A stretch of DNA of 64,000 nucleotides from Candidatus Nomurabacteria bacterium (GTDB lineage Bacteria > Patescibacteriota > Patescibacteriia > Magasanikbacterales > UBA922). The notes under the pieces are model-generated. The model had not been told where the DNA came from, searched no databases, and saw nothing but the letters and a program-made list of their open reading frames with translations. The stretch lies in NCBI GenBank assembly GCA_020632445.1, contig JACKFN010000005.1, positions 30,786 through 94,785 of the forward strand, in the 5' to 3' direction. Shown here one piece after another: positions 8,001 to 62,459 of the stretch (the first letter of the stretch is position 1; the number at the start of each line of letters is the position of its first letter). The position numbers were made by a program, and so were the translations under genes.

Positions 8001-8062
8001 CCCACCTTCAAAATACCAAAAAACACCAACGCTATGGTGTTTTTTGGTATTTTGAAGGTGGG
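8001..8062. repeat. Perfect 28-bp inverted repeat with a 6-nt loop (CCCACCTTCAAAATACCAAAAAACACCA-acgcta-TGGTGTTTTTTGGTATTTTGAAGGTGGG)
   Basis: Read directly; arms are exact reverse complements. The right arm ends in TTGAAGGTGGG, an 11-mer that recurs at 37869 and 40800. Confidence 0.9.
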
Positions 8063-8064
8063 AA

Positions 8065-8538
8065 TTAATAGGCGACAAAGCCGCAGCGACACATGTGATG
8101 CATTGCTGCATCAATGTCAGTCCCCCGCATGGTGTTGGTACGCCTGCAGGTGGCGAGCGGGCACTGCCAACGCCTGGGTGGTAGCTTGCGCAGTGGGTGG
8201 TGAATTCGGCATCTGGCGCAGTAGAAGCATGCGGGCTGGTTTATTTTTCCGCAGCTTGGACAGTGCCAGTTCTGACTGAACTTAATGTGGATGGGTACGA
8301 CTTCCGCTGAACGGAAGATTTCTGGAGGTACAGGCCTGGTTACAGTGCAGCCGTTTCCTTGGCACACTTCGTTTTCCGATCTGTTGAACCACGACCTTCC
8401 GATATGGCAGTGGCTGCAGCTGCAAATCCAGTGCTTTCCGTCGGTGGTCCAGTAAGTGTGCTCAGTGCACAGATGATCATCTGCTCTTGGTACCATGGTG
8501 CGCCACTTCCCGGTTGGTGTTTCTTGTATTGTAGGCAT
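8065..8538 (-). CDS. Hypothetical Cys/His/Trp-rich protein (possible zinc-binding) encoded in the GC-rich island
   Basis: 157 aa from the internal ATG (MPTIQETPTGKWRT...). Multiple CxxC/CxC pairs (WICSCSHCH, HCPSCG, CFYCARC). The TAA stop is immediately followed by CCCACCTTCAA. Frame choice is uncertain because GC-rich DNA keeps other frames open. Confidence 0.3.
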   Translation of the reverse strand: MPTIQETPTGKWRTMVPRADDHLCTEHTYWTTDGKHWICSCSHCHIGRSWFNRSENEVCQGNGCTVTRPVPPEIFRSAEVVPIHIKFSQNWHCPSCGKINQPACFYCARCRIHHPLRKLPPRRWQCPLATCRRTNTMRGTDIDAAMHHMCRCGFVAY

Positions 8539-8589
8539 TTTGAGGAGTTTGTCAATGTGCTTCTTGAGGAGTTTTTGTCTCTGCGAGTG

Positions 8590-8635
8590 GAAACAAAAAA
8601 TCAGTGTATCTGCACTGATTTTTTTTGTTTTGGGT
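8590..8635. terminator. Bidirectional intrinsic terminator hairpin
   Basis: AAACAAAAAATCAGTG-tatc-tgCACTGATTTTTTTTGTTTT: 12-bp stem flanked by A and T runs on either side. Confidence 0.55.
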
Positions 8636-8642
8636 ATGCGAG

Positions 8643-9440
8643 CTACGACCACCCCTCAAGTTTTTCTGCAAAGTGAAAAAGACCGTCAAACATGGCACAC
8701 ATAAATGCTACAATTCCACTGTGTCTAAGCGTGATAACCATAGAAGTTTCTGGTAGGAGAAAGGAAATGCGGTCGCCGTAAATCAAAGCGAGTTCGTTGA
8801 TTGGGATAATAGATTCGGGGAGTGTGCGCAAATCCCAAATGCGTTTTTCAAAGGTGCGGTTCACCTCAGGTGACTGCAAAAATTTTTGTTTTGGTACGGC
8901 AAGAGATTCTTTTGTGAAGATTCCATGTGTGATAATCTCCCTTTTTACTACACGGTCAAAGAAGATGTTCCATTGGTTTGGTGTGAGAAGATCGAGCTCG
9001 TCAATAAGCCCCTTTTTGCCCTCGAGGACACGAAACATAGAGCCCTTTGGAAGCAGAGAGATTTTTTCGTATACTGAAAAGTACCCTTTTTTTGACTCAA
9101 CTACCTCAAATTCGGGTCGTTCACTGGTGACCTTTTGAAGTGACTCAAGTTCCGGTACAAGCAACTTAAGGTCGAGGGTCAGTTTGGTGAGATCTGTTGC
9201 CAGCTGTGCGGGCGGCTTAGCGTTAAAGTGCTGAATTTTTCCTCGCGGAGACTGAAAGAGGAGACCCTTTTCCTGCAGGTTTTTGATGTGAAAATAAGCT
9301 GCAGTTCTGGTCATTTTTACTTCTTTTGCAATTTCAGAGGTGCTGGGATTTTCCAGTGAGAGCACCGCCAGGTAGATGTCGACTTCCTGTTTGGAAAGAG
9401 AAAAGTGTTTGAGGACAGAGTAGATATTGGAGATTTCCAT
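8643..9440 (-). CDS. TrmB-like winged-helix transcriptional regulator (paralogue 1 of 7)
   Basis: Start at the internal ATG (MEISNIYSVLKHFSLSKQEVDIYLAVLSLENPSTSEIAKEVKMTRTAAYFHIKNLQEKGLL), an N-terminal TrmB-type HTH, plus a roughly 150-aa C-terminal domain ending in the family-shared hydrophobic-x-x-LW motif (FHFAEKLEGW). Confidence 0.6.
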   Translation of the reverse strand: MEISNIYSVLKHFSLSKQEVDIYLAVLSLENPSTSEIAKEVKMTRTAAYFHIKNLQEKGLLFQSPRGKIQHFNAKPPAQLATDLTKLTLDLKLLVPELESLQKVTSERPEFEVVESKKGYFSVYEKISLLPKGSMFRVLEGKKGLIDELDLLTPNQWNIFFDRVVKREIITHGIFTKESLAVPKQKFLQSPEVNRTFEKRIWDLRTLPESIIPINELALIYGDRISFLLPETSMVITLRHSGIVAFMCAMFDGLFHFAEKLEGWS

Positions 9441-9568
9441 AGGTTTCTTTTTTACCGAGTGTATCACAACAAGTGGTTTTGTCAAATATTTTTTTCACCA
9501 CAAAGTGTTGACATAATACATAAAAAAGGGTAAAGTTACTTGAATTGTTAAATATAATTTTCAATTGC

Positions 9569-30583: not shown

Positions 30584-31006
30584 TTGCGTCCGAGGGAAAA
30601 CATCATCCGCCGGCAATCATGGGGAGAGGTTGCTGCAAACCTCAGGAGGAGCCGAGTGGATATCCGTGAATGGTTGGTAGTGTTGATGGCTGCGGCCACA
30701 ACGTTTTTGGTCGCCGGTGGAGATTACTACTGGCGTCGAGATCGAAAGGTCATGGCCGCGCTATACAGCGCATTGGGAGTGTTCGCGTCAGCTGTCGTTG
30801 GGATCGGGCAAGCTCGAAACCAGGGACTGCAGATCCTGCCAATGTACATCCTCTTTTTCGCACTGGACATGTTTGTCTTCCTTGCGTTCTGGCGTCGCAT
30901 TGCGCACCGTCATTTCGCATGGATGGAAGCGTGCCGGTGGGGACACCGTAATCACACCCCTCTCGCCTCGGGCGCCCATCTCTCTGGTACCGGACCTGCT
31001 GCCTAA
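30584..31006 (+). CDS. Hypothetical 3-TM membrane protein encoded in a GC-rich island
   Basis: 140-aa ORF with three clear hydrophobic helices (LVVLMAAATTFLVAGG, VMAALYSALGVFASAVVGIG, ILPMYILFFALDMFVFLAFW); about 60% GC against an AT-rich background. Downstream TCCTCCCCACCCTTACTCC overlaps the yidD 3' end. Confidence 0.35.
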   Translation: MRPRENIIRRQSWGEVAANLRRSRVDIREWLVVLMAAATTFLVAGGDYYWRRDRKVMAALYSALGVFASAVVGIGQARNQGLQILPMYILFFALDMFVFLAFWRRIAHRHFAWMEACRWGHRNHTPLASGAHLSGTGPAA

Positions 31007-31029: not shown

Positions 31030-31269
31030 TCATGCAACGTCCTCCCCACCCTTACTCCATGGATTACAACGCAGTATTCTCCAGATCGTCTTGAGTGAGC
31101 CAATAAAGGCTCCATTTTTTTTTATGGATTCGATTGCGTATTGGCTACAGGTTGGATGAAATTTGCAGTATCCTTGTGGGAAGAACCGTCTCACCCAGCT
31201 ATGATCTGGTGAAAGGGTTTTTTGATAGACTATGATACAGCCGATCAAAAATTTTTGTAGGATATTCAT
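31030..31269 (-). CDS. yidD: Membrane protein insertion efficiency factor YidD
   Basis: 79 aa with the conserved CKFHPTCSQYAIESIKKNG and RILRCNPWSKGG motifs; directly downstream of rnpA. Confidence 0.85.
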   Translation of the reverse strand: MNILQKFLIGCIIVYQKTLSPDHSWVRRFFPQGYCKFHPTCSQYAIESIKKNGAFIGSLKTIWRILRCNPWSKGGEDVA

Positions 31270-33603: not shown

Positions 33604-33954
33604 ATGGCAGTCGTCCCAACATACTGGGTGTTGGAGGATGAGGTTCTCACGTTTATTTACTGCCTCATACCAGGGCATGATATGGGGTACGGGAGTCTGG
33701 GGCATCGCCTGGTCGTGGTGAAGGTCTTATACGAGCTCTACCTCGATCAGAGTGATCAGGTCGAGAACGTTAGGTTTTCGAGCACAGATGGTCTGCTAGC
33801 GGCTTTGTCGTGGCTTGTGGCAGACGGACACGTTGAGAAATTTGAGATTGAGCATGTCTGCGACTGGGTGTTCGGTTGTTTCTATGAAACTAACTTGGAG
33901 GACTCACCTCAGTCTCGAGGACCAGCGGTCCCTCGTACTTTTTTCCTTTTCTAA
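33604..33954 (+). CDS. Hypothetical protein (116 aa), moderately GC-rich
   Basis: GGAGGG Shine-Dalgarno 6 nt upstream of the ATG at 33604 (MAVVPTYWVLEDEV...). The TAA stop is followed by CTTTCTCCCACCTCCCTAATC. The track ORF starts inside the P1 repeat. Confidence 0.35.
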   Translation: MAVVPTYWVLEDEVLTFIYCLIPGHDMGYGSLGHRLVVVKVLYELYLDQSDQVENVRFSSTDGLLAALSWLVADGHVEKFEIEHVCDWVFGCFYETNLEDSPQSRGPAVPRTFFLF

Positions 33955-33969
33955 CTTTCTCCCACCTCC

Positions 33970-35493
33970 CTAATCAGTTTTTTGCCTGAATTGAAGCGCT
34001 TCAGATATATGCGTCGACGAGATATTGAGATCTGAAGACAAGTCAGCAATGGTTCTGGCGACCTTCAAGATTCGATGGAAGCTTCTGGCTGAAAGGTTAT
34101 ACATATGCATTGCTTGGCGTAGGAGGGCCTCACTGGATTTATCAATTTGGCAATACTCACGGATGTGGGTATTTTTCATTTCACTATTAGCACTAATACC
34201 TGCATGAGCAAAGCGTTTGGTTTGTATTTCTCGTGCCTCTTCGACTCGCTCGCGTATACTTTTGGACGATTCGGCAAGACCAGGTTGTGTGAGCTTTGAA
34301 AATGCAACTTTTGGGACCTCTATGTGCAGGTCAATTCTATCGAGCAGTGGTCCACTTATTTTCTTTTGATAGTTTTGTATTTGACGAGGGCTGCATATAC
34401 AGGATTTGTCAGGATCAGTAGCATAACCACAAGGGCAAGGGTTCTGGCTGGCAATGAGCGTAAAGCTGGCCGGAAATGTAAGAGTTCCCTGAGCTCTTGA
34501 TATGGTGACTATGCCGTCTTCAAGCGGTCCACGAAGTGTTTCAAGAACCCCTCTTGGAAATTCCGGAAATTCATCCAGAAAGAGGATACCTTTGTGAGCC
34601 AGAGAAATTTCTCCGGGGGAAGGGTATTGTCCACCACCAACGAGGGCGACATGTGAAGCGCTGTGGTGTGGGCTGCGAAATGGACGTTTTGTGATGAGTG
34701 GTGTTTGCTTTGTCAGTAGCCCTGCAACTGAGTAAATTTTTGTAACCTCGATAGCTTCTTGCGGTGTAAGTTTGGGGAGTATGCTTGGGAGTGTTCTTGA
34801 AAGGAGTGTTTTTCCAGACCCCGGTGGTCCGTTTAGCAGCACATTGTGTCCACCACTCGCTGCAATTTCGAGCGCACGTTTGCTCATGGTTTGTCCTCTT
34901 ATGTGCGCCATATCGAGGGGGTATTCTTCCTTTTCAAAAAAAGATTGTGGGTCGATATTCGGTATAGTGCGAATGGGGAGGCTACCATGGAGATGCTTGA
35001 GCATTTGCCCAAAAGAGCGCACCGGGTAGATTTCAATACCACCTATGATGGCAGCTTCTTTGGCATTCATCTCAGGGAGAAAGATTTTTTTGAACCCGTT
35101 TTCTTTGGCATAGATCGCAAGCGGAAGGACGCCTTTGACTGGACGAAGCTCACCACTGAGTGCTAGTTCACCAACAAAAAGAGCGTCATCAAGACGCACG
35201 TTTTGTATATTTTTGTCGGCAATGTAGAGCCCAAGTGCAATGGGAAGGTCAAAAGAACTTCCTTCCTTTCGTGTATCCGCCGGTGCGAGATTTACGACAA
35301 TGCCTTTGCCGTGTGGATATTGCAATCCGGTATTTTTCCATGCGGTACGAATTCTTTCTTTAGCCTCCTTGACGGCTGTGTCCCCAAGTCCGACGAGAAT
35401 AAAGCCGGGCCAGCTCGGTGATACATCGACTTCAATATCAATGGGTTTGCAATCCAAACCAAGCGCAGCAGCGCTGCAAAGTGAAAAAAACAT
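33970..35493 (-). CDS. comM: YifB/ComM-family Mg-chelatase-like AAA+ ATPase
   Basis: 507 aa; N-terminal Lon-protease-like domain, Walker A GPPGSGKT, Walker B ILFLDEFPEF, C-terminal ChlI-like domain. Confidence 0.85.
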   Translation of the reverse strand: MFFSLCSAAALGLDCKPIDIEVDVSPSWPGFILVGLGDTAVKEAKERIRTAWKNTGLQYPHGKGIVVNLAPADTRKEGSSFDLPIALGLYIADKNIQNVRLDDALFVGELALSGELRPVKGVLPLAIYAKENGFKKIFLPEMNAKEAAIIGGIEIYPVRSFGQMLKHLHGSLPIRTIPNIDPQSFFEKEEYPLDMAHIRGQTMSKRALEIAASGGHNVLLNGPPGSGKTLLSRTLPSILPKLTPQEAIEVTKIYSVAGLLTKQTPLITKRPFRSPHHSASHVALVGGGQYPSPGEISLAHKGILFLDEFPEFPRGVLETLRGPLEDGIVTISRAQGTLTFPASFTLIASQNPCPCGYATDPDKSCICSPRQIQNYQKKISGPLLDRIDLHIEVPKVAFSKLTQPGLAESSKSIRERVEEAREIQTKRFAHAGISANSEMKNTHIREYCQIDKSSEALLRQAMHMYNLSARSFHRILKVARTIADLSSDLNISSTHISEALQFRQKTD

Positions 35494-37899: not shown

Positions 37900-38520
37900 T
37901 CACGCGTACTTAGGTCGATCGCGCAATCTCCGATTCGGTCGGTCATAGTACCACAAAACGACATTGGCGGAAACGAGCAAGCTGTAGGTGGGGTTGACCC
38001 ACATGAACACCGGGTCCTCCCGCCAGAAGAAGTAGAAGGTCCACACGAGTGCACTGATCAGATAGATGATCTGCAGTCGGACATCGACCCTTCCCCTGCC
38101 CTTGAGCCACATCTCGCGAGTTTGTAAATAGGCCGCAAAGATGATCAACGCCATGATGGCTGAAAAGGTCTCACGCTTGTGCACGGTGCTGTACATGAAT
38201 GTCGTTGCCAGCGTACTTAGAGCGACTATTATCCAGTCACGTCTGAGCCACTTCTTGTATTTCCAGAGGCCGACAAGTACGGGGAGTTGGCTGACTACGA
38301 GCACTCCACCGTTGTACAGGATCATCTCCTCCCAGCCACGCCAAACGCCGTAGTCGATCTGCGCTATCGATGCAGCGAGGTAGTAGACAAACCAGGATAC
38401 GGATACCGCTTCAGCACTTTGAGACCTAAAGATCTTGTACGCCTGGAGCGCTGACCCTACGGCTTGCGCGATGGTGAAGATGACGATCCCGACACCGACG
38501 AGCATGAGTTGGTTGAACAT
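37900..38520 (-). CDS. Membrane protein with tandem LAB_N-like (lipid-A-disaccharide-synthase N-terminal-like) repeats, encoded in a GC-rich island
   Basis: 206 aa, about 6 TM; the second repeat holds LQTREMWLKGRGRVDV...FYFFWREDPVFMWVNP, resembling the LAB_N consensus (R..QW..SEK...S..P..FW...RxDPVF). About 58% GC. Stop TAA followed 17 nt later by AACCCCACCTTCAACC. Confidence 0.4.
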   Translation of the reverse strand: MFNQLMLVGVGIVIFTIAQAVGSALQAYKIFRSQSAEAVSVSWFVYYLAASIAQIDYGVWRGWEEMILYNGGVLVVSQLPVLVGLWKYKKWLRRDWIIVALSTLATTFMYSTVHKRETFSAIMALIIFAAYLQTREMWLKGRGRVDVRLQIIYLISALVWTFYFFWREDPVFMWVNPTYSLLVSANVVLWYYDRPNRRLRDRPKYA

Positions 38521-40812: not shown

Positions 40813-41043
40813 TTAGGATTCCTCGTGTGGTGCTACCAGTGCCAGCAGAGACCTGCGAGCGAGACGACGTGCGGCACTCTTGCAGCCGGGCTGCGAGCAG
40901 CAGCGGATGGTCGCGCTGTAGCCGGGATGCTCCGGATCGTGGGCGTTGATGACCAGGGTCGAGGGATTACCACAGCCTCGTCGGCCAAGGCAGTCATCCT
41001 TGATGACCCATGAGGGTTTTTCGTCCACATGCGTTTCAATCAT
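40813..41043 (-). CDS. Small Cys-rich protein (76 aa), GC-rich, apparently co-transcribed with the upstream HAD hydrolase gene
   Basis: ATG at 41043 preceded by a strong SD (caAGGAGAccccgATG) lying inside the HAD gene's last codons. MIETHVDEKPSWVIKDDCLGRRGCGNPSTLVINAHDPEHPGYSATIRCCSQPGCKSAARRLARR... with five Cys. Stop TAA embedded in GGTTAGG and followed by CCCCCACCTTCAATC. Confidence 0.45.
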   Translation of the reverse strand: MIETHVDEKPSWVIKDDCLGRRGCGNPSTLVINAHDPEHPGYSATIRCCSQPGCKSAARRLARRSLLALVAPHEES

Positions 41044-42639: not shown

Positions 42640-43042
42640 AAAAATGAGGCGTTGTGAGCAGAAATTCAGTGTACCCACAACGGTAGGCGTCCACGCCTAT
42701 CATCTGGTGGTCACTGCGCAGGTCGCTCGGGTGATTGGTGAGTGTGGACTGCGCACCTTGGTAGTGGCGAACTGTGCTAGGGGTGACCAGTTTGAGGCCA
42801 GGATTCTCGTTGGTGAGGTGGGATGGAGCCGCGTTGTAAGGGTTAGGGAAGCAAGTGTCCAAGACGAGGATCCAATCATAGAGATGCTTCACTTACACAC
42901 TCGGAATTTGGGTGTGGCTTCGTCTGAGGGGCGTGTCGTCCATGAGTTTCGGCTGTCTGAGTTGATCAGTGGCGGACTCGAGGTGATCAGAGATCGGCTC
43001 CAATGGAGGCAGCACAAGAGCAGATTGCTCAGCAGATGTTGA
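42640..43042 (+). CDS. Hypothetical protein (134 aa) in a GC-rich island, preceded by a 22-codon leader ORF (42573..42641) with ATGA stop/start overlap
   Basis: GGGAGGAA SD 6 nt before the ATG at 42573 (MIRCRVIAAYPVVGTALCMLGSKK); its TGA overlaps the ATG of MRRCEQKFSVPTTVGVHAYHLVV... Downstream ATCCCACCTCCATCGAC, then a strong terminator. Confidence 0.35.
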
Positions 43043-43116
43043 GTCCAAACGAGCATGATCATCACAACTGGCCACACACCGCAGTTTATCCCACCTCCAT
43101 CGACTCACCACCGTCG

Positions 43117-45854: not shown

Positions 45855-45863
45855 AGGAAGTAG

Positions 45864-46110: not shown

Positions 46111-46235
46111 ATTGCATAGAAAAGTGCTTTAGGTGCATAGATTGTACTATATGGGGAAAGTGGAGTGCAAATGCCCTGCCAAAAAGGAATCTGCAGAGGT
46201 GTTTGTCTGTGTGGATAACCTACAAAGAATGACGT

Positions 46236-46260
46236 GTTTGTATACACTAGTGTATACAAA
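46236..46260. repeat. P1 palindrome copy 5 (GTTTGTATACACTAGTGTATACAAA); perfect DnaA box TGTGGATAA at 46210..46218 just upstream
   Basis: Read directly. Confidence 0.9.
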
Positions 46261-47166: not shown

Positions 47167-47904
47167 TTGTACCATATGTTAGACACGATGATAACAGAAC
47201 TCTGTATTGAGTTGGCAAATCACCGGAGTATGAAGCCTCTCAAGTCCAGAAATGCTCAACCAGACGAGTTTCTATGCTTCGTCTGTGAAAGAGTTGATAG
47301 TGCTAGAGTGTTTCTCGACTTACTTAAAAAGATGATTCATGTTTGCCAAGGTGATCAAGATCTCCTACTTCGAAAGGCAATAGAAGAAAACCTCCATGAT
47401 GAGCGTGGGGTTGGAAAAGGAAAAAGTGCCTCACATGATAAGTGGCGGGAGGATTACTTAGAAGGTATCCAAAAGCTTCACCATGAACGTGTATGCTGCT
47501 GCGACCATACTTGCCACTTTGTGTACAAGCAGGTATTTCGTGATGCTGTCATGAGGGGAGACAAAGGAGAAATGCTTGGGGTTTTGCTCTATCTTGAGCG
47601 AGTAATCCCCATCGAATTTGCATTTATTAGAAGCTATCAGGATAAGGTATTTTGCGGAATTTTCGTGTATTCCCAGATAGATACTCATCAACAACGTGCA
47701 ATCAAGAGAAAGCTTCGGCGGTATCTGGATGATCATATCGTTCACGATGCTGTAGATCACTACCCAAAACTCCTGCAGGCAATCCAGTTAAGTGGCAGTG
47801 ACTTATCCATGCAGGAGAAAATAGCATATGGCGCCAAGATCATCCATCGTGCAAAGTTGCTCAGCTACGAAACACATTTTCGCAAAAGAAAAACAGGCGT
47901 TTAA
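47167..47904 (+). CDS. Heme-oxygenase-like fold protein (TenA/PqqC/CADD-type iron-containing redox enzyme family), tentative
   Basis: 245 aa with spaced E/H/D ligand-like motifs (EENLHDERG...HDKWREDYLEGI...HDAVDH), all-alpha composition. Confidence 0.35.
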   Translation: MYHMLDTMITELCIELANHRSMKPLKSRNAQPDEFLCFVCERVDSARVFLDLLKKMIHVCQGDQDLLLRKAIEENLHDERGVGKGKSASHDKWREDYLEGIQKLHHERVCCCDHTCHFVYKQVFRDAVMRGDKGEMLGVLLYLERVIPIEFAFIRSYQDKVFCGIFVYSQIDTHQQRAIKRKLRRYLDDHIVHDAVDHYPKLLQAIQLSGSDLSMQEKIAYGAKIIHRAKLLSYETHFRKRKTGV

Positions 47905-47925
47905 CCTGTTTTTTGGTATCAAACA
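47895..47925. terminator. Bidirectional terminator
   Basis: AAAAACAGGcgtttaaCCTGTTTTTTGG. Confidence 0.5.
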
Positions 47926-47988
47926 ACGTTTTCTATCCTGCATGCAAGACACAAATGGAGGTTTGACGGGTGGGGCGTCGCGGTAGGG

Positions 47989-48645
47989 TTAGGCAACCAC
48001 GCTGGAGCGGTGGTCAAGGGCCTCGGCGATCGCAGCAAGGGGCATGGTGAATTCTCGATCACCTTTTTGGAACATAACCTCGCCCCTGCGCAGCAGGTTG
48101 CGGACGGTGCTCTGCGTGATGTGCAGTACGCCGATGAGGTGACACATCTCGATGCCGTAACGTCGGATGACCAGGTAGGCCGCGAGTTGGCGGATGAGGG
48201 CGTATCGGCCTCTCGTGTGAGCGACGATGTCGCCGATATCACAATCGAAGACGATGCAGACCAGGTGGAGGATCTCACGAGCGCCAGCTTCTCCATGAAG
48301 GGACGAATCCCTTAACTGGATCCGAGGGGCCAGACTCCTAAAGGAAAGCCCGTGACGATGCATCATGGAGCGCACGCGGGACCGCAGTGTGGTGCTGGAC
48401 ACGCGTGTATCGAACTGTGCGGAAGTCAAGGACACGAGCTCACCGATGGTGTCGATCCCGTCACAAACCAGCCGACCTCTTCGCCAGATGCTGCAGAGTT
48501 CTTCGGCGTCGTCCATTGACAGACCAACGAGTTCTTCACACAGGAAGGTGTCTCCGGAAATACCCGACATGGCAGCTGCTCCGCAGATGATTGTGGTCAC
48601 TATCGGACAGAGTAAAGGAATTCTCGTCAAATGTAAAGCAGGCAT
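47989..48645 (-). CDS. GC-rich island protein with a C-terminal DnaA-domain-IV-like helix-turn-helix
   Basis: C-terminal RGRYALIRQLAAYLVIRRYGIEMCHLIGVLHITQSTVRNLLRRG aligns with the DnaA DNA-binding domain (compare this genome's own DnaA, [35 protein letters not shown]). The likely start is an internal ATG at 48570, which has a GGAGCAG SD. Stop TAA followed by CCCTACCGCGACGCCCCACCCGTCAAACC, then a terminator. Other frames in this about 64% GC stretch are also open. Confidence 0.4.
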   Translation of the reverse strand: MPALHLTRIPLLCPIVTTIICGAAAMSGISGDTFLCEELVGLSMDDAEELCSIWRRGRLVCDGIDTIGELVSLTSAQFDTRVSSTTLRSRVRSMMHRHGLSFRSLAPRIQLRDSSLHGEAGAREILHLVCIVFDCDIGDIVAHTRGRYALIRQLAAYLVIRRYGIEMCHLIGVLHITQSTVRNLLRRGEVMFQKGDREFTMPLAAIAEALDHRSSVVA

Positions 48646-48721
48646 GCTTTCAAGAGAAGCCGTTTCCTGTTTTTTGGTGTATGCTTCCTTTGTTTTGTGT
48701 GATATACTTTACAGGTAAAAT

Positions 48722-53200: not shown

Positions 53201-53962
53201 GTAGATCCTGTGGGAATCCACAAGACCCCGGCACGAGTGAAAAGAGATAAAATTCTCCGTTCAGCCCAGCATCTCGTATCCATGCTTGGTATATTTTCGA
53301 CGGTCGCAGCCCTCTATATCACTCCGACCTGGTATATTGGGGTCTTTTTGGCGATCCATGTGTTCTTTTATGCCGGATTTTTGAAATATGTAAAGCCGAA
53401 AAAGCCAAAAGGATGGGGTATTGTGTATGATTTGCATTCACGAAGGCCGGTGAAAGATGCCGTTATTCGTTTGTTCACGAAGGAATACAACAAGCTGGTA
53501 TCGACTCAGGTGACAGACAAACAGGGAAGGTACGCGTTTTTGGTTGGGCCAAGCAACTACTATTTCACGGTTGAACATGAAGGGTATAATGAAAGTAAAA
53601 GTAAAGAATACAACTTAACTCAGGCAAAAAAAGATCTTTCTCTTATCAAGGAAAATGTGGGCATTGTCCGCTTTGGGTTTGAAGACAAACCGGCACGAGT
53701 AAGGAGAAAAAGAAAGTGGTGGGAGAAAATATTGGGAATAAAGCCAAAACATTACCAAAAACATACACGTCGCGTCGCCATGGACGGTCCAAGGAGGAGG
53801 TTTCACCGTACGTGGTGGCAAAAAATACTCGGAATAAAGCCAAAAAGACCGACTATTGATCATGTACATCCTAGTGAGGGTCAGCTCAATGCAGTGCACC
53901 GTAGATATCATAGGAAGCGAAAATGGTGGGAGAAAATTTTGGGAATAAAGCCCAAGAAATAA
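50273..53962 (+). CDS. Giant multidomain surface protein (1229 aa): Cys-rich repeats, FN3-like domains, a Gly/Asp-rich low-complexity segment, three carboxypeptidase-regulatory-like (prealbumin-fold) domains, TM segments and a C-terminal triple WWEKILGIKPK repeat
   Basis: Signal peptide; CGNGVVEGAEGCDDGNTNSGDGCSNVC repeat; FN3-like TKPTIDNIVVDRTHHSATVSWTT...; GDQGDGGDQGDG low complexity; CarbopepD_reg-like GVKVTLLHEDKTSWNG...GMYAFLVQPGKYRMRIEKDGYNTYQ and two further copies; C-terminal KWWEKILGIKPK x3 (53701..53962). Confidence 0.7.
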   Translation: MRNKLLFLSGFLLSFAWSAFWVGNVLADVSSTSATLQATVAAVCGNGVVEGAEGCDDGNTNSGDGCSNVCAVEGVGGPGVNPGGGGGGGNGGGDVTKPTIDNIVVDRTHHSATVSWTTTDDTSVASCSFAYGIDESYGSSADVVLAEGTYSVSLENLQANKKYFYRIRCLDPSANQGQVNADFTTKNAPVDDDEDPVISDVETSIGKRSVHVSWIATDDSRIDECVFVYDDDNAQEPYDSNNGVLDLAGDAYRAEINGLVPNTQYFYKITCSDLAQKTVVHLGFFVTDADNVPPPDVEVIQPTPGDKSIEVEWVFAADVIDDFGSFMIRRKIGGRPLTPDNGQLVAQIPNVGTSRLVDNGLINGQEYYYTIFVFDTSGNASNGKSTSAIPNGALPEQEVCDNGIDDDFDGAIDCDDNVCAADAACVDPADGGDQGDGGDQGDGDPGDQGNGGDQGNQGDGGNNDGGDDQGGDVGPAGGGPGGQGGAVPDGGGPGGGGLPIVPEICNNEVDDDGDEKVDCQDIDCALALECFEQLVEVKCDDGLDNDHDGLKDQEDPDCVVQQEIKDAKEKGAQDGDVGEGKIPQGAPVYWLSQRQLRAPVIKGRVSALQNTQITIGIDSLQIEKEVRLMALVLGGTNYVFDKELDGWYYADFFISRVGVYEAQIVVSYEDGDAQQIPIQIAIVPPGVIAESGTGRPLSGVKVTLLHEDKTSWNGFVLGQQNPFITKETGMYAFLVQPGKYRMRIEKDGYNTYQTLVFTVEGNVINKSYELIAKAPSLLEGVDADAPVLENVQKLASNLGKQVVEKTKVVGQKAQAVKEKVDEIADDEEVEKVTKTVVAPTAVGVAAAAVVPSLWSTFIPLLRFLFLQPFLLFGRKRRQEWGTVYNSLTKLPLDLAIVRLVDTATKRVIQSRVTDAQGRYLFITKPGKYLLEVTKQGFTFPSNILKSVRSDGKMLDIYHGEDVEVIEEGTTITPNIPVDPVGIHKTPARVKRDKILRSAQHLVSMLGIFSTVAALYITPTWYIGVFLAIHVFFYAGFLKYVKPKKPKGWGIVYDLHSRRPVKDAVIRLFTKEYNKLVSTQVTDKQGRYAFLVGPSNYYFTVEHEGYNESKSKEYNLTQAKKDLSLIKENVGIVRFGFEDKPARVRRKRKWWEKILGIKPKHYQKHTRRVAMDGPRRRFHRTWWQKILGIKPKRPTIDHVHPSEGQLNAVHRRYHRKRKWWEKILGIKPKK

Positions 53963-54091: not shown

Positions 54092-57000
54092 ATGTTGCGC
54101 ACACCAAAGAAAACAATTCAGGAGGGTGTGTTATTGAGGTTTAAAAACGAGATCCTAACCGTCGTTATGGGAACCATTGTTGTGGTTACCCTTGTTTTGT
54201 TTGGTATTTTTGCCATGGCTGAAAATGTAGTGGGTGCGGCACCTCCAGCCATTATCACCTATCAAGGAAAACTGCTCAAAAGTGGTGCGGCCGTTACCAC
54301 GACACAACAAATGGGATTTATGGTCTATAGTGCGTCAACCGGTGGGTCGCTTTTGTATACAGCATCGGGGACACCAACAGTAACTTCGACGATTAACGTG
54401 CCCGTATCACAAGGAATTTTTTCTGTGAGCCTTGGTAATACCGGAACCAATAGTATCCCAGCAAGTATTTTTGCCACCAATACCGCACTTTATTTGCAGG
54501 TGTGGGTAAATGATGGTGGAACATACACCAAACTCACTCCTCGTAAGAGGTTGACGGCATCGCCATTTGCCATGAACAGTCAGTATCTTCTTGGGTATTC
54601 ACCTGCCGTTTCATCGACAAGTCAATATATACCGGTCTCAGATAGTAATGGAAACTTTGCCTTTCGTGGCGACCCACAGTCAACAGGAGTTGCCGGAGGA
54701 ACACTATATATCAATCCAGGGACAGCAGGCGCGAATGAAACACTGTTTGGAATAGCGCTCAATGGAAGTGAGCGTTTTCGTGTAGATGAAGATGGAGATA
54801 CGTGGATTGAAGGGGGATTGGTAGTAAGCACTACGCTCCAAGCTGCAACAACAACATTAGCAGAGCTTTCTGTTACAAACGGGATTACGCTAGGTGGCGT
54901 ACGAAGAACCACTTGGCCATCTGGTGGAGGTGGTGGTTCAAGCCTCTGGGCGAGCAGTACCGGAAGAGTTTATCCTGCAACCTTGACAGATGTTGTACTC
55001 GTTGGAAAAAATTCAACATCATCAGCGAGTACGGTTTTTGAAGTAAGTGGGTCTTCACTTTTTGAGGGAAATGTTTCTCTGAGTTCTGGTTCAACGCTCA
55101 CACTTGCGGGATCATTGACGCAAACTGGAATTTCAAGTTTTGCCACAACAACGTTTAACGGAGATCTTTCTGTGCTCAGTGACTTGAACGTTGGCTCAGG
55201 CAAACTCGTTTACGTTACAAGCACCGGATTTGTTGGGGTGAACACGTCAACACCAGGCGCGCAGTTTGCGGTTGACGGAAACGGATATTTCAAGGGAACA
55301 TATGATATAACTGCAGATTTGCGTATTCTCGATAATTTGTATGTTGGATCCCGATCAGAGGCAATTACTTCATCGACGTTTGCTCTTGATGGGGATGACG
55401 CATACATTCATGATTTGCTTGGTGTTGGTGATAGCATTTTTGTGGAAAATGCTTTGCACATTGGTACAAGTTCGCTGCATCTTACAGGAAATACTGGAGG
55501 TGCAGGTGGACTCATCCGTATGGATGGAGGGCCATTAGTTATTGACTCCGCCGGAGCGCTTAGCCTGAATACCAACAAAAATCAACAAATCTATACGGGA
55601 TCAGGAAACTTTGGTATCAACACAACCTCACCGGCGTATAATTTGAGTGTCGAGGGACAGGCCTATGTGAGTGCTACAGCCACTGCCAAGGATCTTGTGG
55701 TCAGTGATTCACTCACTCTTGGTGGTGTCAGACGGACGTCATGGCCTGGTGGAGTGGAAACCACTACAAATAACGATTTTTCTGGACTCAATACGTTCAG
55801 TGCAACGACAACATTTACTTCTACGACATTTTCTGGAAAGGCCACCATAAACAATTTGCTCAACGTGACAGGAAAAACATTCAACCCAAGACCTGCAGGT
55901 TCATATACCAACACCACGCTTTTTGATGATGTGGACAAGATTGTTGTAAAGAATAACATTGCGTATATTGGTTCTGCGACAGGTACCCTGTCACTTGTTG
56001 ATGTCAGTAATCCAAACAGCCCCGCACTCCTTGGTTCATATACGTCAACTACACTTGCGCCATTTGGTGGTGAGATGAATTTGCAGGTAGGTGGTCAGTA
56101 TGCCTACTTTGGTTCATCCAATGCATTCCATATCATTGATATATCAAAGCCAAAGTCTCCTACGTTTGTAGGTCAGATATTGAATTTTGGATTTCCTACT
56201 GGTTTGAGTGGTTCTACTGCACTTTCTGGAAGTGTTTTGTATGGTGCAAACGGCGTTGGTGGTGCAATGCCGGAATATATAGATATCACACGTGCGCATG
56301 AGCCAAGGAAGTATTCTCCAGCAGGAGCAAGCTCACTTGATCAGGGACGTGCCACTTTTGTATCGGGTCGATACGTGTATGTGCTTGGAAGCACGCCAAA
56401 TTTGGTTATCTTTGACTACAGTGATAAAACGCATCCTGTACAAGTTGGAATTGCCACATCGACAAGCTTTAGTAACATAAGTTTTACTGCGGAAAACGGT
56501 GATTTGTTTGTCGATGGTCGGTATGCTTATGTCACAGCACCTACATCGGGCTTTGGTGGTGGTGGTGATGCACTTACCATTGTGGATGTTGGTAATCCGG
56601 CTTCGCCAAGCGTTGTCGCTACATTACCTTCTACAACGAGCGCCTTGATGGATGATCCTACTTCAGTTGTTGCTGTCGGAGATTTGGTGTATATCACAAG
56701 TGAATCACAGAATTCCCTTGCCATTGTCGACGTTTCAACAAAAGCAAGTCCAACAGTGGTCGGGTCTATTACTGACTCTGGTGCTACGCTTTTACGTGGT
56801 GCCAAGTCGGTCGATGTTTCCGGAAATTATGCGTATGTGGTATCTCGGACCGACAAGTCGTTGCAGGTCATTGATATATCCGGGATCAAAGTCAATAATG
56901 CACAAATTGGTTCAGCACGTATAGAGCGAATTCAGGTATCCGGAAAATCATATTTTGATGAAGACATTGATATCGGTGGGGGACTCAGTGTTGGTGCTAA

Positions 57001-60000
57001 CGGGCTTCTGCTCAGAGGAGATTTAAATATTATTGGAAACGGTTCAATAAGTACTTCGACGATAAGTACGGGAACTATTCGTTTTGCGGGTGCGGCAAAT
57101 TTTAGAAGCGACATCACTTCGGGGAGTGCAGCATTTACCTTTAATCCTGGTGCAAATCTCGATACAGCCGTATTTAGGATACTGAATTCTTCGGGTTCGG
57201 AATTGTTTTACATGACCAAGGATGGATATTTGGGTATTGGAACCTCTACTCCATCCAAAAAATTAGAGGTGAGTGGAGATGCATACGTCAAGGACAACTT
57301 GTATGTCGGAAGGGGCACGGAGGCCATTACTTCATCGACATTTGCTCTTGATGGCGATGATGCATACATTCATGATCTTCTTGGTGTTGGTGATAGCATA
57401 TTTGTGGAAAATGCTTTGCATATTGGAACAAGTTCATTGCACCTTACCGGGGATACGGGTGCTACCACGGGTGGACTTATTCGTATGGATGGAGCTGGGC
57501 TTACGATTGATGCCGAGGGAACACTGAGTCTCAATACCCAAAGTGGGAATGGTATTAGCTTTGGTGGAAATGTCACCTCTGATTTGAGTGTTCGTGGTAA
57601 GGTGGGCTCTCCGGTAAACGTTGGAACCATTGATTTGTCATTTGGAAATACTGTAGAGGTTGTTGATGGCTATGCCTATGTTACTCTTATCGATGGTGGT
57701 TTCTCTATTATCGATGTTGGGAACCCGGCAACACCAACAACAACAGCAACCATTGATCCGGTTTCAAATTCTTATGACATCAGCGTATCGGGAAATTATG
57801 CATTTGTTTCGCATAACAATGGAGGATCTGACGGGATATCGGTTATTGACATTACAGATAAGTCCAATCCGTTTTCAGTAAAAAATTATCGGTTTTCTGC
57901 GCTGGCAGTAGAATCAGTTATTTCGGGAAATTATCTCTATGTAGCTGCCTCAACACAATTGAGTGTCATTGATATTTCAAATCCCCTTGAACCTGTTACG
58001 GTAGGTTCATGGTCTGGTGACTCTGTAGTTGGAATTGAAGTACAGGGAAGCTATGTGTATGTGAATGGTGGTACAGAAATTCATGTCATCGATGTATCTG
58101 AGCCTACAAGTCCCGTTCAGGTGGCTACATTCAACACGGCTCAGAGTATAAATGACATGATACTTGAAGACGGGTATATATATACAAGTGGTGGTAGTCC
58201 TGAAGGTGTTCGAATTTTTCGCGTCGGAGATAATGGAAATATACGACTGATTGGATCTCTGACATCAGGGCTTACCGATCTTCGAAAGATGGCAATATCA
58301 GGAGATTATCTTTATGCATCTGATTTTACTGATGGACTTGTCGTGATAGATATTAGCGATAAAACAGCACCGGTGGAAGTGGTTACCACGAATCCTGGAT
58401 CTTCTGGTGCACTTGATGTCGAGGCCGTTGGAAATTATGTGTACCTCGCTACCAAGGCAGATGGATTCCGTATTTTAGATGTCACAGCCATCCGTTCGGC
58501 CAATGCTCACATCGGTTCGCTTCGCACTGGTAGGCTGTATGTAGACAATCAGGCATTTTTTAGCCAGCCTGTGCATATCAATAGCGGACTGCATGTTGGC
58601 AATGATGGGCTGATGCTTTCCGGTGATTTTGCGATGTTTTCTAATTCTACATCGACGTCAGCCACTACAACCATGCGTTTTGGAGATACGGTGCGTTTCT
58701 TATCGACGGTGACGAGCTCTGATGATTATGCCTTTATTTTTGACACTCAGAATCGCTTGACCATCAATACTACGACATACATCATGTCCATTCGTAACAA
58801 TGGAGATCCGCTTTTCTCCATAGATACTCGTGGGGATGTCTACGCATCGGGTACATATCACGGAGAGGCCATTAATGTTAGCACCTCAGGACAGCCTGGA
58901 GACCTTGCCGAAAAAGTAGATATTGCCATAAATGAATCTGTTGAGCCTGGTGATGTTATCGTTGTTGATCATGAGGCGAATGATCGTTATAGAAAGAGTG
59001 TACAGCCATACCAAACAGGGGTAGCAGGTGTTATTGCTACCAATCCGACCATTGTCATCGGAAGCGGAAAGACAGAGAATCAAGCTAAGCTTACTATGGT
59101 TGGTCGTGTACCCGTAAAAGTAAGTGACGAAAATGGTGCGATCCAACGTGGAGACCTACTTGTTACCGGTTCTAAACCTGGGTATGCAATGAGATTTGAT
59201 CCATATCATGATACTGGCGCTCAAGCTGTCGGCGTCGTTGGTGTCGCACTTGAACCACTTCCTGTTAACGAAGGAAAAGTCATGGCGCTTATTCGTGGTG
59301 GATACATTAATAATCGGACCAAGACGCTTAGCGAAATTCAGCAAGATCTCTTATCATTGGCACAGTATGAAGGAATTCCGATTGGAACGAGTGTTCAGGA
59401 TTTAAGTATTAACATCAATTCAGAAGGGGGAATAGACAATCAGTTAGTAAATCAGGATTTGGGTGGTAGCTACATTATCAATGTAGCCGGATTGCTCGGA
59501 AAAGATGGAGCTTGGGAGGTGGATGATAATGGAAGATTTATTACGAAGGTTGCTACTTCGGCGGGTACTAAGGAGCTCTATGCTATTCAATCAGGGAATA
59601 CAGAATATGTGTTTTCGGGTACAGGACAGCTAGAGTCAGGAAGTGCGCGCGTAGATTTTGGTGAGGTTACTCAGGAGCTTATTGATGGTAATAAGCCTAT
59701 GAAGGTAAGTGTTACACTCACGTCCGAGGCAAACGGAATTTTTGTGGAGTCAAAGAATGCCACTGGATTTACGGTCAAGGAATTACAAAATGGAAGCAGT
59801 AGTGCAACCTTTGATTGGGTTGTAATAGCCCAAAGAAAGGTAATAGATAGCGATAATACTCATTCTGATGAGGGTGTTCAGGAGGCGCAGCAAGAGCGAC
59901 TAGAAGAGCAACCAGAAGAGCAACCAGAAGAGCAACAACCAGAGGTAGTGGAGGAAGAAGTTGGAGAAAGTGAAGAAAATGAAATCGTGGAGGATCCAAA

Positions 60001-60313: not shown

Positions 60314-60337
60314 CCAAAGTAACTCTAATACCTGACT

Positions 60338-60649
60338 ATGACGTACATTGACTACATTAGTCCATTTGTGTGGCACACTGGAATGATACTTGAGTTCATA
60401 GGAATTTTTATTGTGGCTATTTCTGCATTTACCGTGCTTGTGCGGGTATGTCAAAAAGGGTATACACAGCAAACCATTCGAGCCGAATTCGCGCAAAGAA
60501 TAATTTTTGGGTTGGAATTTGTGATTGCCGCTGACATCTTGCTTGCATCAGTTGCCAGTGACCTCATGCAGGTTAGCCGTCTTGGTGGAATAGTGCTAAT
60601 CAGGGTAGTTCTGGGCTATGCACTGCGTAAGGAGGCCGGGATAAAATAA
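60338..60649 (+). CDS. Small membrane protein, DUF1622-like
   Basis: 103 aa, 2-3 TM, conserved-looking GLEFVIAADILLA segment; a terminator hairpin (ATCAAGCcctaaGCTTGATTTTTTG) follows at about 60652..60690. Confidence 0.45.
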   Translation: MTYIDYISPFVWHTGMILEFIGIFIVAISAFTVLVRVCQKGYTQQTIRAEFAQRIIFGLEFVIAADILLASVASDLMQVSRLGGIVLIRVVLGYALRKEAGIK

Positions 60650-60723
60650 AATGAAAAATCAAGCTTAGGGCTTGATTTTTTGTTTGCTTTTCTTTATAAT
60701 CATCCCCACAGTATAGTATAAAA

Positions 60724-60797
60724 GGGCCTGTAACTCAGCTGGCTAGAGTGTCGCCATGGCATGGCGGAAGTCAGGGGTTCAAATCCCCTCAGGTCCA
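60724..60797 (+). tRNA. tRNA-Ala (anticodon GGC) with the G3:U70 identity pair
   Basis: GGGCCTGTAACTCAGCTGGCTAGAGTGTCGCCATGGCATGGCGGAAGTCAGGGGTTCAAATCCCCTCAGGTCCA: acceptor GGGCCTG/CAGGTCC with G3-U70 wobble, anticodon loop AU-GGC-AU, T-arm AGGGG-TTCAAAT-CCCCT; CCA not encoded. A hairpin terminator follows at about 60815..60850. Confidence 0.85.
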
Positions 60798-61100
60798 CAC
60801 TTCGGTATTAGAGGCGTTTTCGATATGATCGAGAACGCTTTTTTTAGTCGGCGGAAGTTTGACCTTCGAGCTGGGCAACATACCAAAAAGCTGTATTAAA
60901 TGCCCTACTCAACAAAAAAACCATTAACTTAGGCAAAAAACAGGGTTTTGTACGCCCTCTCCTGTCTTGATAATGGCATTGACAAAATGCAACTCATTTG
61001 ATAAGGTTTAATGTTCATTGAGACCTGTTTTTGACTCGTGTGCAGGAACAGTTCGTATCTGCGAATTGTACCGGCTCACGAACAATAAGCGGGGCTTTCG

Positions 61101-62201
61101 ATGAAGAAGCTTACCTATCGGATAGTACAGTTTTGGTCTTTCTTCCAGGAGCACGTGTACGGTCGTAGCGAGGAGGTCTCGCTCCAGATCAATCCGAGTG
61201 TGCTTTCTCGGGAGATGAGAGGCTACCACGCACAGGCGCTCTGGCACAGCCACATCTCACTGCTGTTCGTATACGTCTCGACGTTACTCGTGTGGTGTGC
61301 TTGGGAAGCAATCAATTCCCAAACAGTTCTTAACGGTGTTGGAACAGGTATATGGGATTGGGAGTCGGTGCTCAGTGGCGTGATTCTCTACCTGATGCTG
61401 GTTTTTCTCTTCGCAGTTCCATTGTGTGGATCGAGCTGGCTTCGACGTGATAACACGGTGCGATTCACGCGCGGATTCATGACTGATGAAGTCAAGGATC
61501 TACTTGAGAGGTATAGGTGGTTTTATTTCGACGACAAAGTCACCTATCGCATGGTCTTCACGAACCGCAATCCCATCTTCTTCCTGCGAATCCTCGAACG
61601 GTTTCCCTGTCAGTGCGACTGGAGCAAGCCCGTACGCAAGGACCTTCTTACATGGCTGATCATCTGTGTCCTTGAGCCATTGCTTTTCCAGCAGATTTAC
61701 CTGCGGGTCATCTGGCCTTACTTGATCAATCCATTTCAGTTGGCCTTTCTGTCGTACGACGAAGCAGCCAAAACAGCAGACCTCAAAGAGGGCGAACGTG
61801 TGCTCGTCCTCGGTGCGGGTGCTGTTCCCCACCACATTCGCTGGAAGCGTCGGCTGAGTGCTCGTGGTTGGATCGTGGCACTCGACGATAACCCCTACGT
61901 GCTTCGAGACTCACGAAGGATTGAAGCGCTTATCGAGTGGCTACGCGGACTGCTGCGTCTCCAACGTCGAGAAGTCACTAAGTACGTGCGGGCTGACAAC
62001 CTTACCCTACCATTCCCTGATGCAAGCTTCGACGCGGTCATTGCGATTCGTTGCTATGTCATAAACGTCGATGAAGCGAAACGTGTACTCAAGCCGGGTG
62101 GTCGACTTGTCGTTATCTGTTGTGGCGAGGTACGAGGCAAGGACCTGCACCATCAAGCCGGACTCCAGGTAACCTATGATGGGTTTGTCCTCACCATTTG
62201 A
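61101..62201 (+). CDS. Membrane-anchored class I SAM-dependent methyltransferase, in a GC-rich island adjacent to tRNA-Ala
   Basis: N-terminal about 200 aa with several TM helices; C-terminal Rossmann MTase motifs VLVLGAGAVP (motif I), DAVIAIRC, LKPGGRLVV. About 55-60% GC. Stop TGA followed by TCCACCAACCCACCATCACAACC. Confidence 0.55.
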   Translation: MKKLTYRIVQFWSFFQEHVYGRSEEVSLQINPSVLSREMRGYHAQALWHSHISLLFVYVSTLLVWCAWEAINSQTVLNGVGTGIWDWESVLSGVILYLMLVFLFAVPLCGSSWLRRDNTVRFTRGFMTDEVKDLLERYRWFYFDDKVTYRMVFTNRNPIFFLRILERFPCQCDWSKPVRKDLLTWLIICVLEPLLFQQIYLRVIWPYLINPFQLAFLSYDEAAKTADLKEGERVLVLGAGAVPHHIRWKRRLSARGWIVALDDNPYVLRDSRRIEALIEWLRGLLRLQRREVTKYVRADNLTLPFPDASFDAVIAIRCYVINVDEAKRVLKPGGRLVVICCGEVRGKDLHHQAGLQVTYDGFVLTI

Positions 62202-62459
62202 TTACACCGCATGAATTCCACCAACCCACCATCACAACCCTAGTACACCAATCCGTTGGTGCCCTTGGTGTTGTTTCAATCACATCTCGTTCACGTTCTT
62301 TTTATCATAGTCCCAATAGAGCTGAGGGTCGTGCGTCTTTTCGATTTTATATTGAGTACTCTTCTTTGTCAGAGATTGCATCGCATCCCTTTGGTCTCAG
62401 CAGAGTAAACAAAAAAAGCCACTGCGAGTGGCTTTTTTTGGTATTTGCCGAGGGTGTGC

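Follow-up and report, generated by a model that had tools for sequence, protein, structure and literature searches.

A short C-rich sequence, here called the box, follows the stop codon in nine of ten small, mostly orphan GC-rich genes and marks them as one class of accessory gene units on the chromosome of an uncultured member of the Patescibacteria (candidate phyla radiation, CPR). The genome carries the NCBI name "Candidatus Nomurabacteria bacterium" and H6758 locus tags, and its relatives are Magasanikbacteria-like. The stretch that we analysed (the window) spans 64 kb, has a GC content of 44.1% and lies close to dnaA/oriC. The full form of the box is the 11-mer CCCACCTTCAA, and the form that characterizes the class is the hexamer CCCACC. 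The ten units are scattered over 55 kb among housekeeping genes and are not arrayed; we refer to them by the letters A to F or by the lower coordinate of their open reading frame (ORF).

CCCACC occurs on the sense strand no more than 80 nt 3' of the stop codon in nine of the ten GC-rich ORFs and in none of 45 ordinary genes (Fisher p = 1.6e-9). The absence of the motif from AT-rich genes had been claimed in a first-pass annotation of this DNA, and that claim stands. When each 80-nt untranslated region (UTR) was shuffled at its own composition, 0.56 positives were expected and nine were seen (P about 1e-12). The window holds 33 CCCACC hexamers on both strands together, nine of them in the 3' regions of GC-rich genes and five inside GC-rich coding sequences, where by this count there is no enrichment. 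Every box has the sense orientation and is 2-47 nt away from the stop codon, and beyond the hexamer the nine sites share T/C, T/C, C and A, which gives the consensus CCCACCTYCA. The next-best match in the window to a sequence model of the nine boxes falls to 6 bits. The 50 nt after the stop codon of GC-rich genes are also skewed as a whole, with C at 0.347 and G at 0.142 against 0.199 and 0.191 in other genes (p = 1.5e-5). The association at the level of the class is solid, though it rests on 64 kb.

The complete 11-mer is over-represented, as had been claimed: four exact copies are present against 0.06 expected, a count that none of 100 shuffles reached. They lie at 8001-8011 (+), 8052-8062 (-), 37881-37891 (-) and 40800-40810 (-), at three loci; the minus-strand copies read TTGAAGGTGGG on the plus strand, and the copies at 8001 and 8052 are the two arms of a single 29-bp palindrome. 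The first-pass annotation had reported three copies and had placed one of them at 37869. The excess it described is real, but the number of copies is four and that position is off by 12 nt. With up to two mismatches to the 11-mer allowed, the window contains 26 matches against 21 expected, and none of them is a one-mismatch copy. Four looser variants listed earlier (33961, 43090, 47974 and 62225) are likewise not significant individually, but they are significant as members of the CCCACC class.

The ten ORFs have a GC content of 0.51-0.67 and a GC content at third codon positions (GC3) of 0.58-0.76, while GC3 in core genes is 0.31-0.50. Seven of them had been recognized before and are upheld, with overall GC of 0.51-0.60 and GC3 of 0.58-0.71; those at 7739-7963, 30584-31006 and 62460-63032 had been overlooked. 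Two earlier starts needed correction. The ORF given as beginning at 42640 begins at 42644, and the gene at 8065, unit B, most likely starts at the Met at 8496 and not at 8538, because a frameshifting 1-nt indel between the strains falls between the two candidates, upstream of Met-8496. Judged by GC content at each codon position and by the pattern of synonymous and non-synonymous changes between strains, the GC-rich ORFs look coding and are real genes. In most of them position 3 is the highest in GC and position 2 the lowest. Against a strain that is 97% identical, A carries two synonymous changes and an R to K replacement produced by the triple substitution CGT to AAG, which points to a real coding sequence. 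B differs from the corresponding strain contig (L104) by six synonymous and six non-synonymous changes (dN/dS roughly 0.3). We rejected the idea that wrong-frame reading of gene fragments accounts for the islands, as the alternative-frame ORFs have no Pfam matches.

Each unit consists of a single ORF whose composition is unlike that of its neighbours, and every unit is located between the terminators of neighbouring genes. Nearly all have their own sigma-70-type promoter, typically TTGACA-N17-TAnnAT, with none clear for F. Upstream terminators adjoin the unit promoters: the -35 hexamer of 62460 lies inside a terminator loop, and those of 30584 and D lie 5 nt and 11 nt past one. An intrinsic terminator follows the box in most units. 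The first-pass annotation had a hairpin terminator after every box, but there is none at 33604, and at 61101 the case is weak, the hairpin there (ACACCAA-tccg-TTGGTG), which resembles the core of the palindrome between A and B, having no T-run; the real terminator of 61101 lies about 200 nt beyond it. The same annotation described the exact 11-mer as always standing first after a terminator at an AT-to-GC boundary. This holds for C, D and B, but elsewhere the box often sits inside a C-rich stretch. At 33604 it occupies a 15-nt gap ahead of the stop codon of the convergent gene comM. Coordinates of the units and their parts are collected in Table 1.

Table 1. Coordinates of the GC-rich units, their promoters and their 3' elements in the window.
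Feature	Position	Strand	Description
Unit A ORF	7739..7963	+	74 aa; GC 0.67, GC3 0.76; Arg-rich N-terminus, CxxC...CxxC zinc ribbon
Unit A promoter	7668-7696	+	TTGCAA-N17-TAAGAT
A/B palindrome	8000..8063	.	perfect 29-bp inverted repeat (8000-8028 / 8035-8063), 6-nt loop; box in both arms (CCCACCTTCAAAATACCAAAAAACACCA)
Unit B ORF	8065..8496	-	143 aa; several Cys4 zinc-ribbon-like motifs; alternative start 8538 unlikely
Unit B promoter	8527-8555	-	TTGACA-N17-ACAATA
30584 unit ORF	30584..31006	+	membrane-like orphan; maximal 140 aa, gene callers 106-116 aa; promoter 30553-30581
30584 box variant CCCACCCTTAC	31045..31055	+	38 nt past stop codon
33604 unit ORF	33604..33954	+	orphan, 116 aa
33604 box variant CCCACCTCCCT	33961..33971	+	6 nt past stop; no hairpin after
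D exact box CCCACCTTCAA	37881..37891	-	8 nt past stop; 2 nt ahead of bidirectional terminator 37844-37878
Unit D ORF	37900..38520	-	206 aa polytopic membrane protein; GC3 0.71; H6758_03700
Unit D promoter	38544-38572	-	TTTACA-N17-TAGGTT
C exact box CCCACCTTCAA	40800..40810	-	2 nt past stop; 11 nt ahead of terminator 40763-40785
Unit C ORF	40813..41043	-	Cys-rich orphan, 76 aa; promoter TTGACA-N17-TAGGAT at 41069-41097
Unit E ORF	42644..43042	+	orphan, 132 aa; promoter 42554-42582; terminator 43120-43155
E box variant CCCACCTCCAT	43090..43100	+	47 nt past stop codon
F box variant CCCACCCGTCA	47964..47974	-	14 nt past stop; terminator 47889-47913 next, lead-in GATACCAAAAAAC
Unit F ORF	47989..48645	-	orphan, 218 aa; weak similarity to DnaA domain IV
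61101 unit ORF	61101..62201	+	366 aa membrane-anchored S-adenosylmethionine-dependent methyltransferase; about 300 nt downstream of tRNA-Ala (60724-60798)
61101 box variant CCCACCATCAC	62225..62235	+	23 nt past stop codon
62460 unit ORF	62460..63032	-	190 aa membrane protein; sole GC-rich unit without CCCACC

When the ten 3' regions are aligned in pairs, they fall into sub-families that are related by descent, over short stretches. The modules of A and B are identical at 29 of 29 positions. Those of C and D match at about 22 of 29, over ATCCTRAMCCCCACCTTCAA followed by CAAACA, a similarity that extends into the final codons and takes in an in-frame TRA stop. The boxes of E (43090) and 33604 (33961) have TTTNTCCCACCTCC in common (13/14). 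In lead-in and stem, the inner part of the A/B palindrome is similar to the terminators of 62460 and 61101 (AAATACCAAAAAA-stem; ACACCA-loop-TGGTG), and 62460 shares the AAATACCAAAAAA-stem with that palindrome despite lacking CCCACC. The lead-in ATACCAAAAAA, which precedes the stem of several terminators, has five copies in the window, and four of these stand at the terminators of GC-rich genes (A, B, 62460 and F). Related genomes have four copies of ATACCAAAAAA in 1.2 Mb (both strands), none at a terminator. Outside the A/B palindrome the box is mostly unpaired in minimum free energy (MFE) folds and lies 0-55 nt upstream of the hairpin. The palindrome itself (MFE -50 to -64 kcal/mol) is a predicted bidirectional terminator common to the convergent genes A and B. 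Between the two strains the segment 7964-8064, which holds both 3' UTRs and the palindrome, has no substitution in 101 nt, while the adjacent B coding sequence has 12 in 432 nt (2.8%).

Assemblies from three independent sequencing runs are 100% identical across the parts of the window that they cover, and a fourth run represents the second strain, 97-99.7% identical and with the same arrangement; the arrangement of the GC-rich units is therefore not an assembly artefact. Both loci recoverable from the second strain, A/B and 30584, carry their units, the latter at 99.7% identity. Wider searches for close relatives returned little: a contig scan with the binding protein at 38622-39722 as query found nothing, a metagenome scan found only relatives that are 25-34% identical, and exact-protein look-ups retrieved short same-strain contigs only, plus two contigs of the 97-99.7% strain. 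Relatives other than the second strain are only 50-60% identical in their proteins and are rearranged. A convergent pair of binding-protein genes in one relative (locus L059) was considered as a proxy for an empty site at D and discarded, its members being paralogues at 25-30% identity.

The proteins of eight units (A, B, C, D, E, F, 30584 and 33604) have, as far as sequence searches reach, no homologue outside the species. D is a singleton among 5.8e9 proteins, and in an exhaustive comparison with 1.8e9 representative proteins A, B, C, E, F, 30584 and 33604 matched only themselves or a strain variant (for B, itself and a variant of 93% identity). No orphan ORF matched phage or plasmid records. 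Similarities to known domains are weak: the product of B resembles NZF/RanBP2-type zinc fingers, and that of D resembles PQ-loop/MtN3 proteins. The two remaining genes are different. The protein of 61101 has a full-length homologue of 40% identity in another CPR genome, where the gene is tRNA-adjacent, has background GC and is without the box, and 62460 belongs to a large membrane-protein family that accounts for most of 1,495 matches in the pooled search, with CPR homologues about 40% identical. Not every gene of the class is therefore an orphan.

Among the sequences compared, the box is specific to this genome. A 20-bp palindrome from the window retrieved 84 stretches of Magasanikbacteria-like Patescibacteria genomes, in which core proteins are 50-78% identical to those of the window and gene order is rearranged. 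The pattern CCCACCT[TC]CA has no match in the 609 kb of these 84 loci, none of 38 GC-rich ORFs in the relatives is followed by CCCACC, and the nine-box sequence model finds nothing at E <= 10 in 654 kb. Because the box is absent from the relatives, it is not a lineage-wide terminator consensus; a ubiquitous consensus of that kind, which the first-pass annotation had named as the finding that would overturn its proposal, was not seen in these 609-654 kb. In the window, Rfam matches at gathering score are three tRNAs alone, with no match to the box.

We tentatively favour a reading in which the units are moron-like accessory genes that share, by descent, a transcribed 3' module made of box and terminator, although the weight we give it falls somewhat short of even. 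The units would have been laterally acquired, or at least would be lineage-specific, and a small regulatory cassette of box and terminator would travel with the GC-rich gene class. From its constant sense orientation, its place after the stop codon and ahead of the terminator, and the prediction that it stays unpaired, we infer that the box is transcribed and acts on the transcript; we deem a DNA crossover site less likely. Its likeliest role would be that of an unstructured C-rich site for termination or for RNA-protein binding, similar to Rho-utilisation (rut) or anti-Shine-Dalgarno sequences. Short homologies between terminators may help the units to recombine into intergenic terminators. 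The earlier suggestion that a foreign class of genes has a 3' element in common fits the data, given a sense-strand box that is confined to atypical, mostly orphan genes, falls into sub-families and is absent from relatives.

The closest parallel is with the morons and promoter early stem-loop (PeSL) units of T4-type phages. These are promoter-ORF-terminator units of atypical composition that encode mostly orphan proteins and lie between conserved genes (PMC2839356, PMC4122927). Short conserved promoter/stem-loop sequences bound them and can act as recombination homologies (PMC2839356, PMC4122927). The units described here are likewise autonomous promoter-ORF-terminator units that differ from their neighbours in composition, but they reside on a bacterial chromosome near oriC and not in a phage. 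PeSL units also carry the conserved promoter-stem-loop on both sides, whereas here the common element is a C-rich 3' box with a terminator lead-in and there is no conserved copy of the box at the 5' end; at F, one half of the terminator is present on both sides of the unit. A likeness to rut sites is seen in the C-rich, G-poor and (by prediction) unpaired RNA directly after the stop codon (C 0.35, G 0.14). Rut sites, however, are set by composition and not by a conserved 11-mer, and most of the units here have an intrinsic terminator as well.

Several observations weigh against the reading of morons with a transcribed 3' module. The unit promoters look host-like, which is unexpected in freshly imported DNA. 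CPR homologues exist for two of the GC-rich genes, 61101 and 62460, and the position of the 61101 homologue beside a tRNA suggests ancestry rather than recent import. Strand and position are the only pointers to a role of the box at the RNA level, and its predicted duplex with the ribosome-binding region of its own gene is no better than with those of other genes. The similarities within sub-families are short (13-29 nt). Seven of the nine boxes keep the frame of the ORF before them, with the codons CCA-CCN, which this reading leaves unaccounted for. Finally, the data span 64 kb of one genome and about 2 kb of a second strain. The set is best filed as accessory units of atypical composition that share a regulatory cassette.

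In the main rival reading, the box works at the level of DNA and marks the junction of single-gene cassettes inserting beside intrinsic terminators, either as an attachment or crossover site or as the end of an element. We regard this as unlikely, though the strongest of the alternatives. At C, D and B the box directly follows the terminator, at the AT-to-GC boundary. The C/D similarity ATCCTRAMCCCCACCTTCAA enters the last codons and supplies the in-frame stop, as element ends sometimes do, and the units are orphans dispersed among core genes. F is flanked by an exact 13-nt direct repeat, CCTGTTTTTTGGT (47905-47917 and 48666-48678), which is a terminator half and of which about 0.006 are expected, and C is flanked by an 11-nt inverted repeat, TTGAAGATTGA (40793) and TCAATCTTCAA (41094). 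No repeat type is common to all units, however, and their 5' ends have no counterpart of the box; a local search of seven units (61101 and 62460 left out) found no common terminal inverted repeats or target-site duplications. In five units (A, E, F, 30584 and 61101) it is 14-47 nt past the stop codon that the box is found, within a C-rich stretch and far from the terminator. A Pfam scan of about 45 window ORFs returned no member of the integrase, transposase or recombinase families. Both loci that can be compared across the two strains are occupied, and no polymorphic empty site is known.

The first-pass annotation had likened the box to an integron attC site or the end of a small mobile element, and these tests support neither comparison. 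The units do resemble integron cassettes in being unrelated small genes, often of atypical GC, each with a recognizable 3' element on the sense strand. But attC is an imperfect palindrome of 60-140 bp with R''/L''-L'/R' cores, whereas the box is a linear motif of 11 nt, and integrons have intI, attI and an array of promoterless cassettes, none of which was found in the window, where about 45 ORFs were scanned; the units are dispersed, form no array and have their own promoters. The R''/R' architecture of attC is absent: no inverted partner accompanies the box at C, D, E, F, 30584, 33604 or 61101, no box sequence matches RYYYAAC/GTTRRRY, and only the A/B locus is palindromic, and perfectly so.

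Integration at tRNA genes fares no better. The pair 61101/62460 lies directly downstream of tRNA-Ala, but no tRNA-derived repeats stand beside the units, and the 3' halves of tRNA-Ala, tRNA-Arg and tRNA-Cys yielded no repeat of at least 11 nt at any unit boundary. An attachment site derived from tRNA or transfer-messenger RNA (tmRNA) was rejected, as the box in antisense has only GGTGGGGT in common with the 3' end of tRNA-Arg and flanking repeats are lacking; no tmRNA was found in the relatives' loci. Viral contigs scanned with 17-19-mers of the box gave only chance matches inside coding sequences. A match of ORF A to a Cas12f1-like TNB domain was set aside, since its E value of 0.0014 is below the family cut-off and it reflects the zinc ribbon alone, and no IS200/IS605 features were found. 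The units do not show the sets of features that define integron attC sites, insertion sequences (IS) or miniature inverted-repeat transposable elements (MITE), tRNA-integrated islands or uptake signals.

A further possibility, which we consider doubtful, is that the box mimics an anti-Shine-Dalgarno sequence in the 3' UTR and pairs with the ribosome-binding site of its own or another mRNA to repress translation. The sequence CCCACCUCC/CCCACCUUC resembles the CACCUCC 3' end of 16S rRNA, and the predicted single-stranded box just 5' of a terminator hairpin is placed as in 3'-UTR-derived RNAs with a C-rich seed. There is a precedent in the UCCCC motif of the icaR 3' UTR of S. aureus (PMC3868564), and icaR and small RNAs with C-rich seeds share with the box an unpaired, C-rich, anti-Shine-Dalgarno-like sequence in the 3' UTR near the terminator (PMC3868564, PMC5502269). 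The resemblance is unspecific, however, because any Shine-Dalgarno sequence pairs with any string of this kind. Unlike icaR, the genes here show no specific complementarity between their 5' and 3' ends (the duplex predictions are given above), and the motif spans a class of unrelated genes.

Less probable again is a repeated extragenic or uptake-signal-like sequence whose inverted pairs form terminators, after the manner of the DNA uptake sequences (DUS) of Neisseria or of repetitive extragenic palindromes (REP). The box is short, exact and oriented, and its one perfect inverted pair is a terminator between convergent genes, as DUS pairs are (PMC2397512); the uptake signal sequences (USS) of Pasteurellaceae are alike in these respects (PMC2397512, PMC3630211). 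An inverted pair is present at only one of the three loci, however. Known uptake signals have a density of about one per kb, or hundreds to thousands per genome, with enrichment in core genes, whereas four exact copies were found in the 64 kb, none in or after the 45 core genes. The density of the box is too low by roughly ten-fold or more, and it is restricted to atypical genes.

It is very improbable that the box descends from coding sequence or extends it, as an in-frame Pro-Pro(-Ser) that is reached by read-through of the stop codon or remained when a longer ORF was truncated. The offset from stop codon to box is 2 mod 3 in seven of the nine cases, CCA-CCN puts the variable base at the wobble position, and in-frame stop codons intervene in one case only. 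Allowing for shared descent and choice of frame, the bias is nonetheless marginal (p about 0.01-0.06), A and 33604 do not have their boxes in frame, each of the three stop codons occurs, and the sequence past the box is unrelated terminator DNA. That C-rich strings are simply commoner in GC-rich DNA, which the chance-level number of individual variants might suggest, is refuted by the composition-matched shuffles, by the lack of enrichment in GC-rich coding sequences and by the GC-rich ORFs of the relatives. A Chi-like sequence or biased gene conversion was rejected on the polarity of the box and would leave the orphan status of the genes unexplained.

The genes around the units are dnaA, dnaN, holA, polA, tig, rnpA, lspA, a dksA-like gene, comM, rmuC and the gene for a class A penicillin-binding protein, together with several TrmB-like regulators paired with periplasmic binding proteins and genes for very large surface proteins. 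At the A/B locus (7750-8810) the two strains differ by 3.1%, ten-fold more than the 0.3% at the 30584 locus (30207-31154), and the differences fall mainly in the coding sequence of B and the region 5' of it. At 8607-8612, downstream of the TrmB-like gene at 8643-9485, the loop and inner stem of a terminator are exactly reverse-complemented between the strains (GTATCTGC in the window, GCAGATAC in L104), a hairpin "flip". The frame of dnaA (6128-8092, minus strand) is open upstream through DnaA boxes and the antisense of A, and automatic callers therefore give a DnaA of 632 aa (locus L013); the real start is at 7498-7500 (MTNYEIWQAV...).

The predicted promoter of 33604 overlaps a conserved 24-bp palindrome that adjoins a cluster of DnaA boxes. 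This perfect palindrome, TTTGTATACACTAGTGTATACAAA, occurs five times in the window (33406-33429, 33537-33563, 45102-45125, 45865-45888 and 46236-46260), and its 20-bp core is present in the 84 Magasanikbacteria-like stretches (loci L019-L102), often in pairs 53-198 bp apart that are sited upstream of dksA-lspA-comM or beside tRNA-Arg(CCU)/rmuC. It looks like a putative lineage-wide operator, several TrmB-like regulators being encoded nearby. The pair at 33388-33563 encloses the DnaA-box-like cluster (TTATCCACA; five in the window), as do the pairs in L025, L043, L047, L058 and L097, and a second DnaA-box cluster lies upstream of dnaA at 7600-7640. Either of the two could be oriC or a promoter under the control of DnaA. 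A second palindromic motif, GTTTCACGTGAAAC, has three copies (45615-45643, 45830-45858 and 46097-46125) that are intergenic around GNAT and TrmB genes and interleaved with the 24-bp palindromes. Many public records of metagenome-assembled genomes that contain syntenic CPR genes along with the Magasanikbacteria-type palindrome bear the title "uncultured Gammaproteobacteria bacterium" (L020, L023, L024, L027-L029 and others), which appears to be a placeholder or a mislabel.

The membrane methyltransferase gene of unit 61101 lies directly downstream of a tRNA in two distant CPR genomes (L017 1-1280; window 60724-62201), which suggests a conserved tRNA-linked islet or an ancestral linkage. Elsewhere in the window, a candidate small RNA is located between a 131-aa ORF and holA: a GC-rich segment of about 150 nt at 1560-1715 (+), bounded by a TTGACG-N17-TACTAT promoter and a terminator, has a long hairpin as its predicted fold (-78 kcal/mol; z = -7.3 relative to shuffles) and no match in Rfam. 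The gene for a surface protein of 1229 aa ends (53705-53955) in three copies of a 44-nt unit that encodes KWWEKILGIKPK-like tails, and that for a surface protein of 2084 aa contains a 167-nt duplicate that is 84% identical (55331-55497 and 57293-57459).

CPR bacteria have tiny genomes, and little is understood of how they acquire and control new genes. A tag common to unrelated orphan genes offers a handle on the origin of such genes, by way of donor or vehicle, and on their expression or silencing. There is a modest chance, well below that of the reading we favour, that the box and its terminator lead-in belong to an undescribed CPR system that inserts captured orphan genes beside the intrinsic terminators of core genes, a chromosomal counterpart of integron cassettes or PeSL shuffling with a recognition sequence of its own, or that the box is a new 3'-UTR control element common to the class and serving newly acquired genes. 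If the box proves to be an insertion or recombination signal, it would represent a new mechanism of gene capture; if it proves to be an RNA element, a 3'-UTR motif shared by an entire class of accessory genes would be a rarity.

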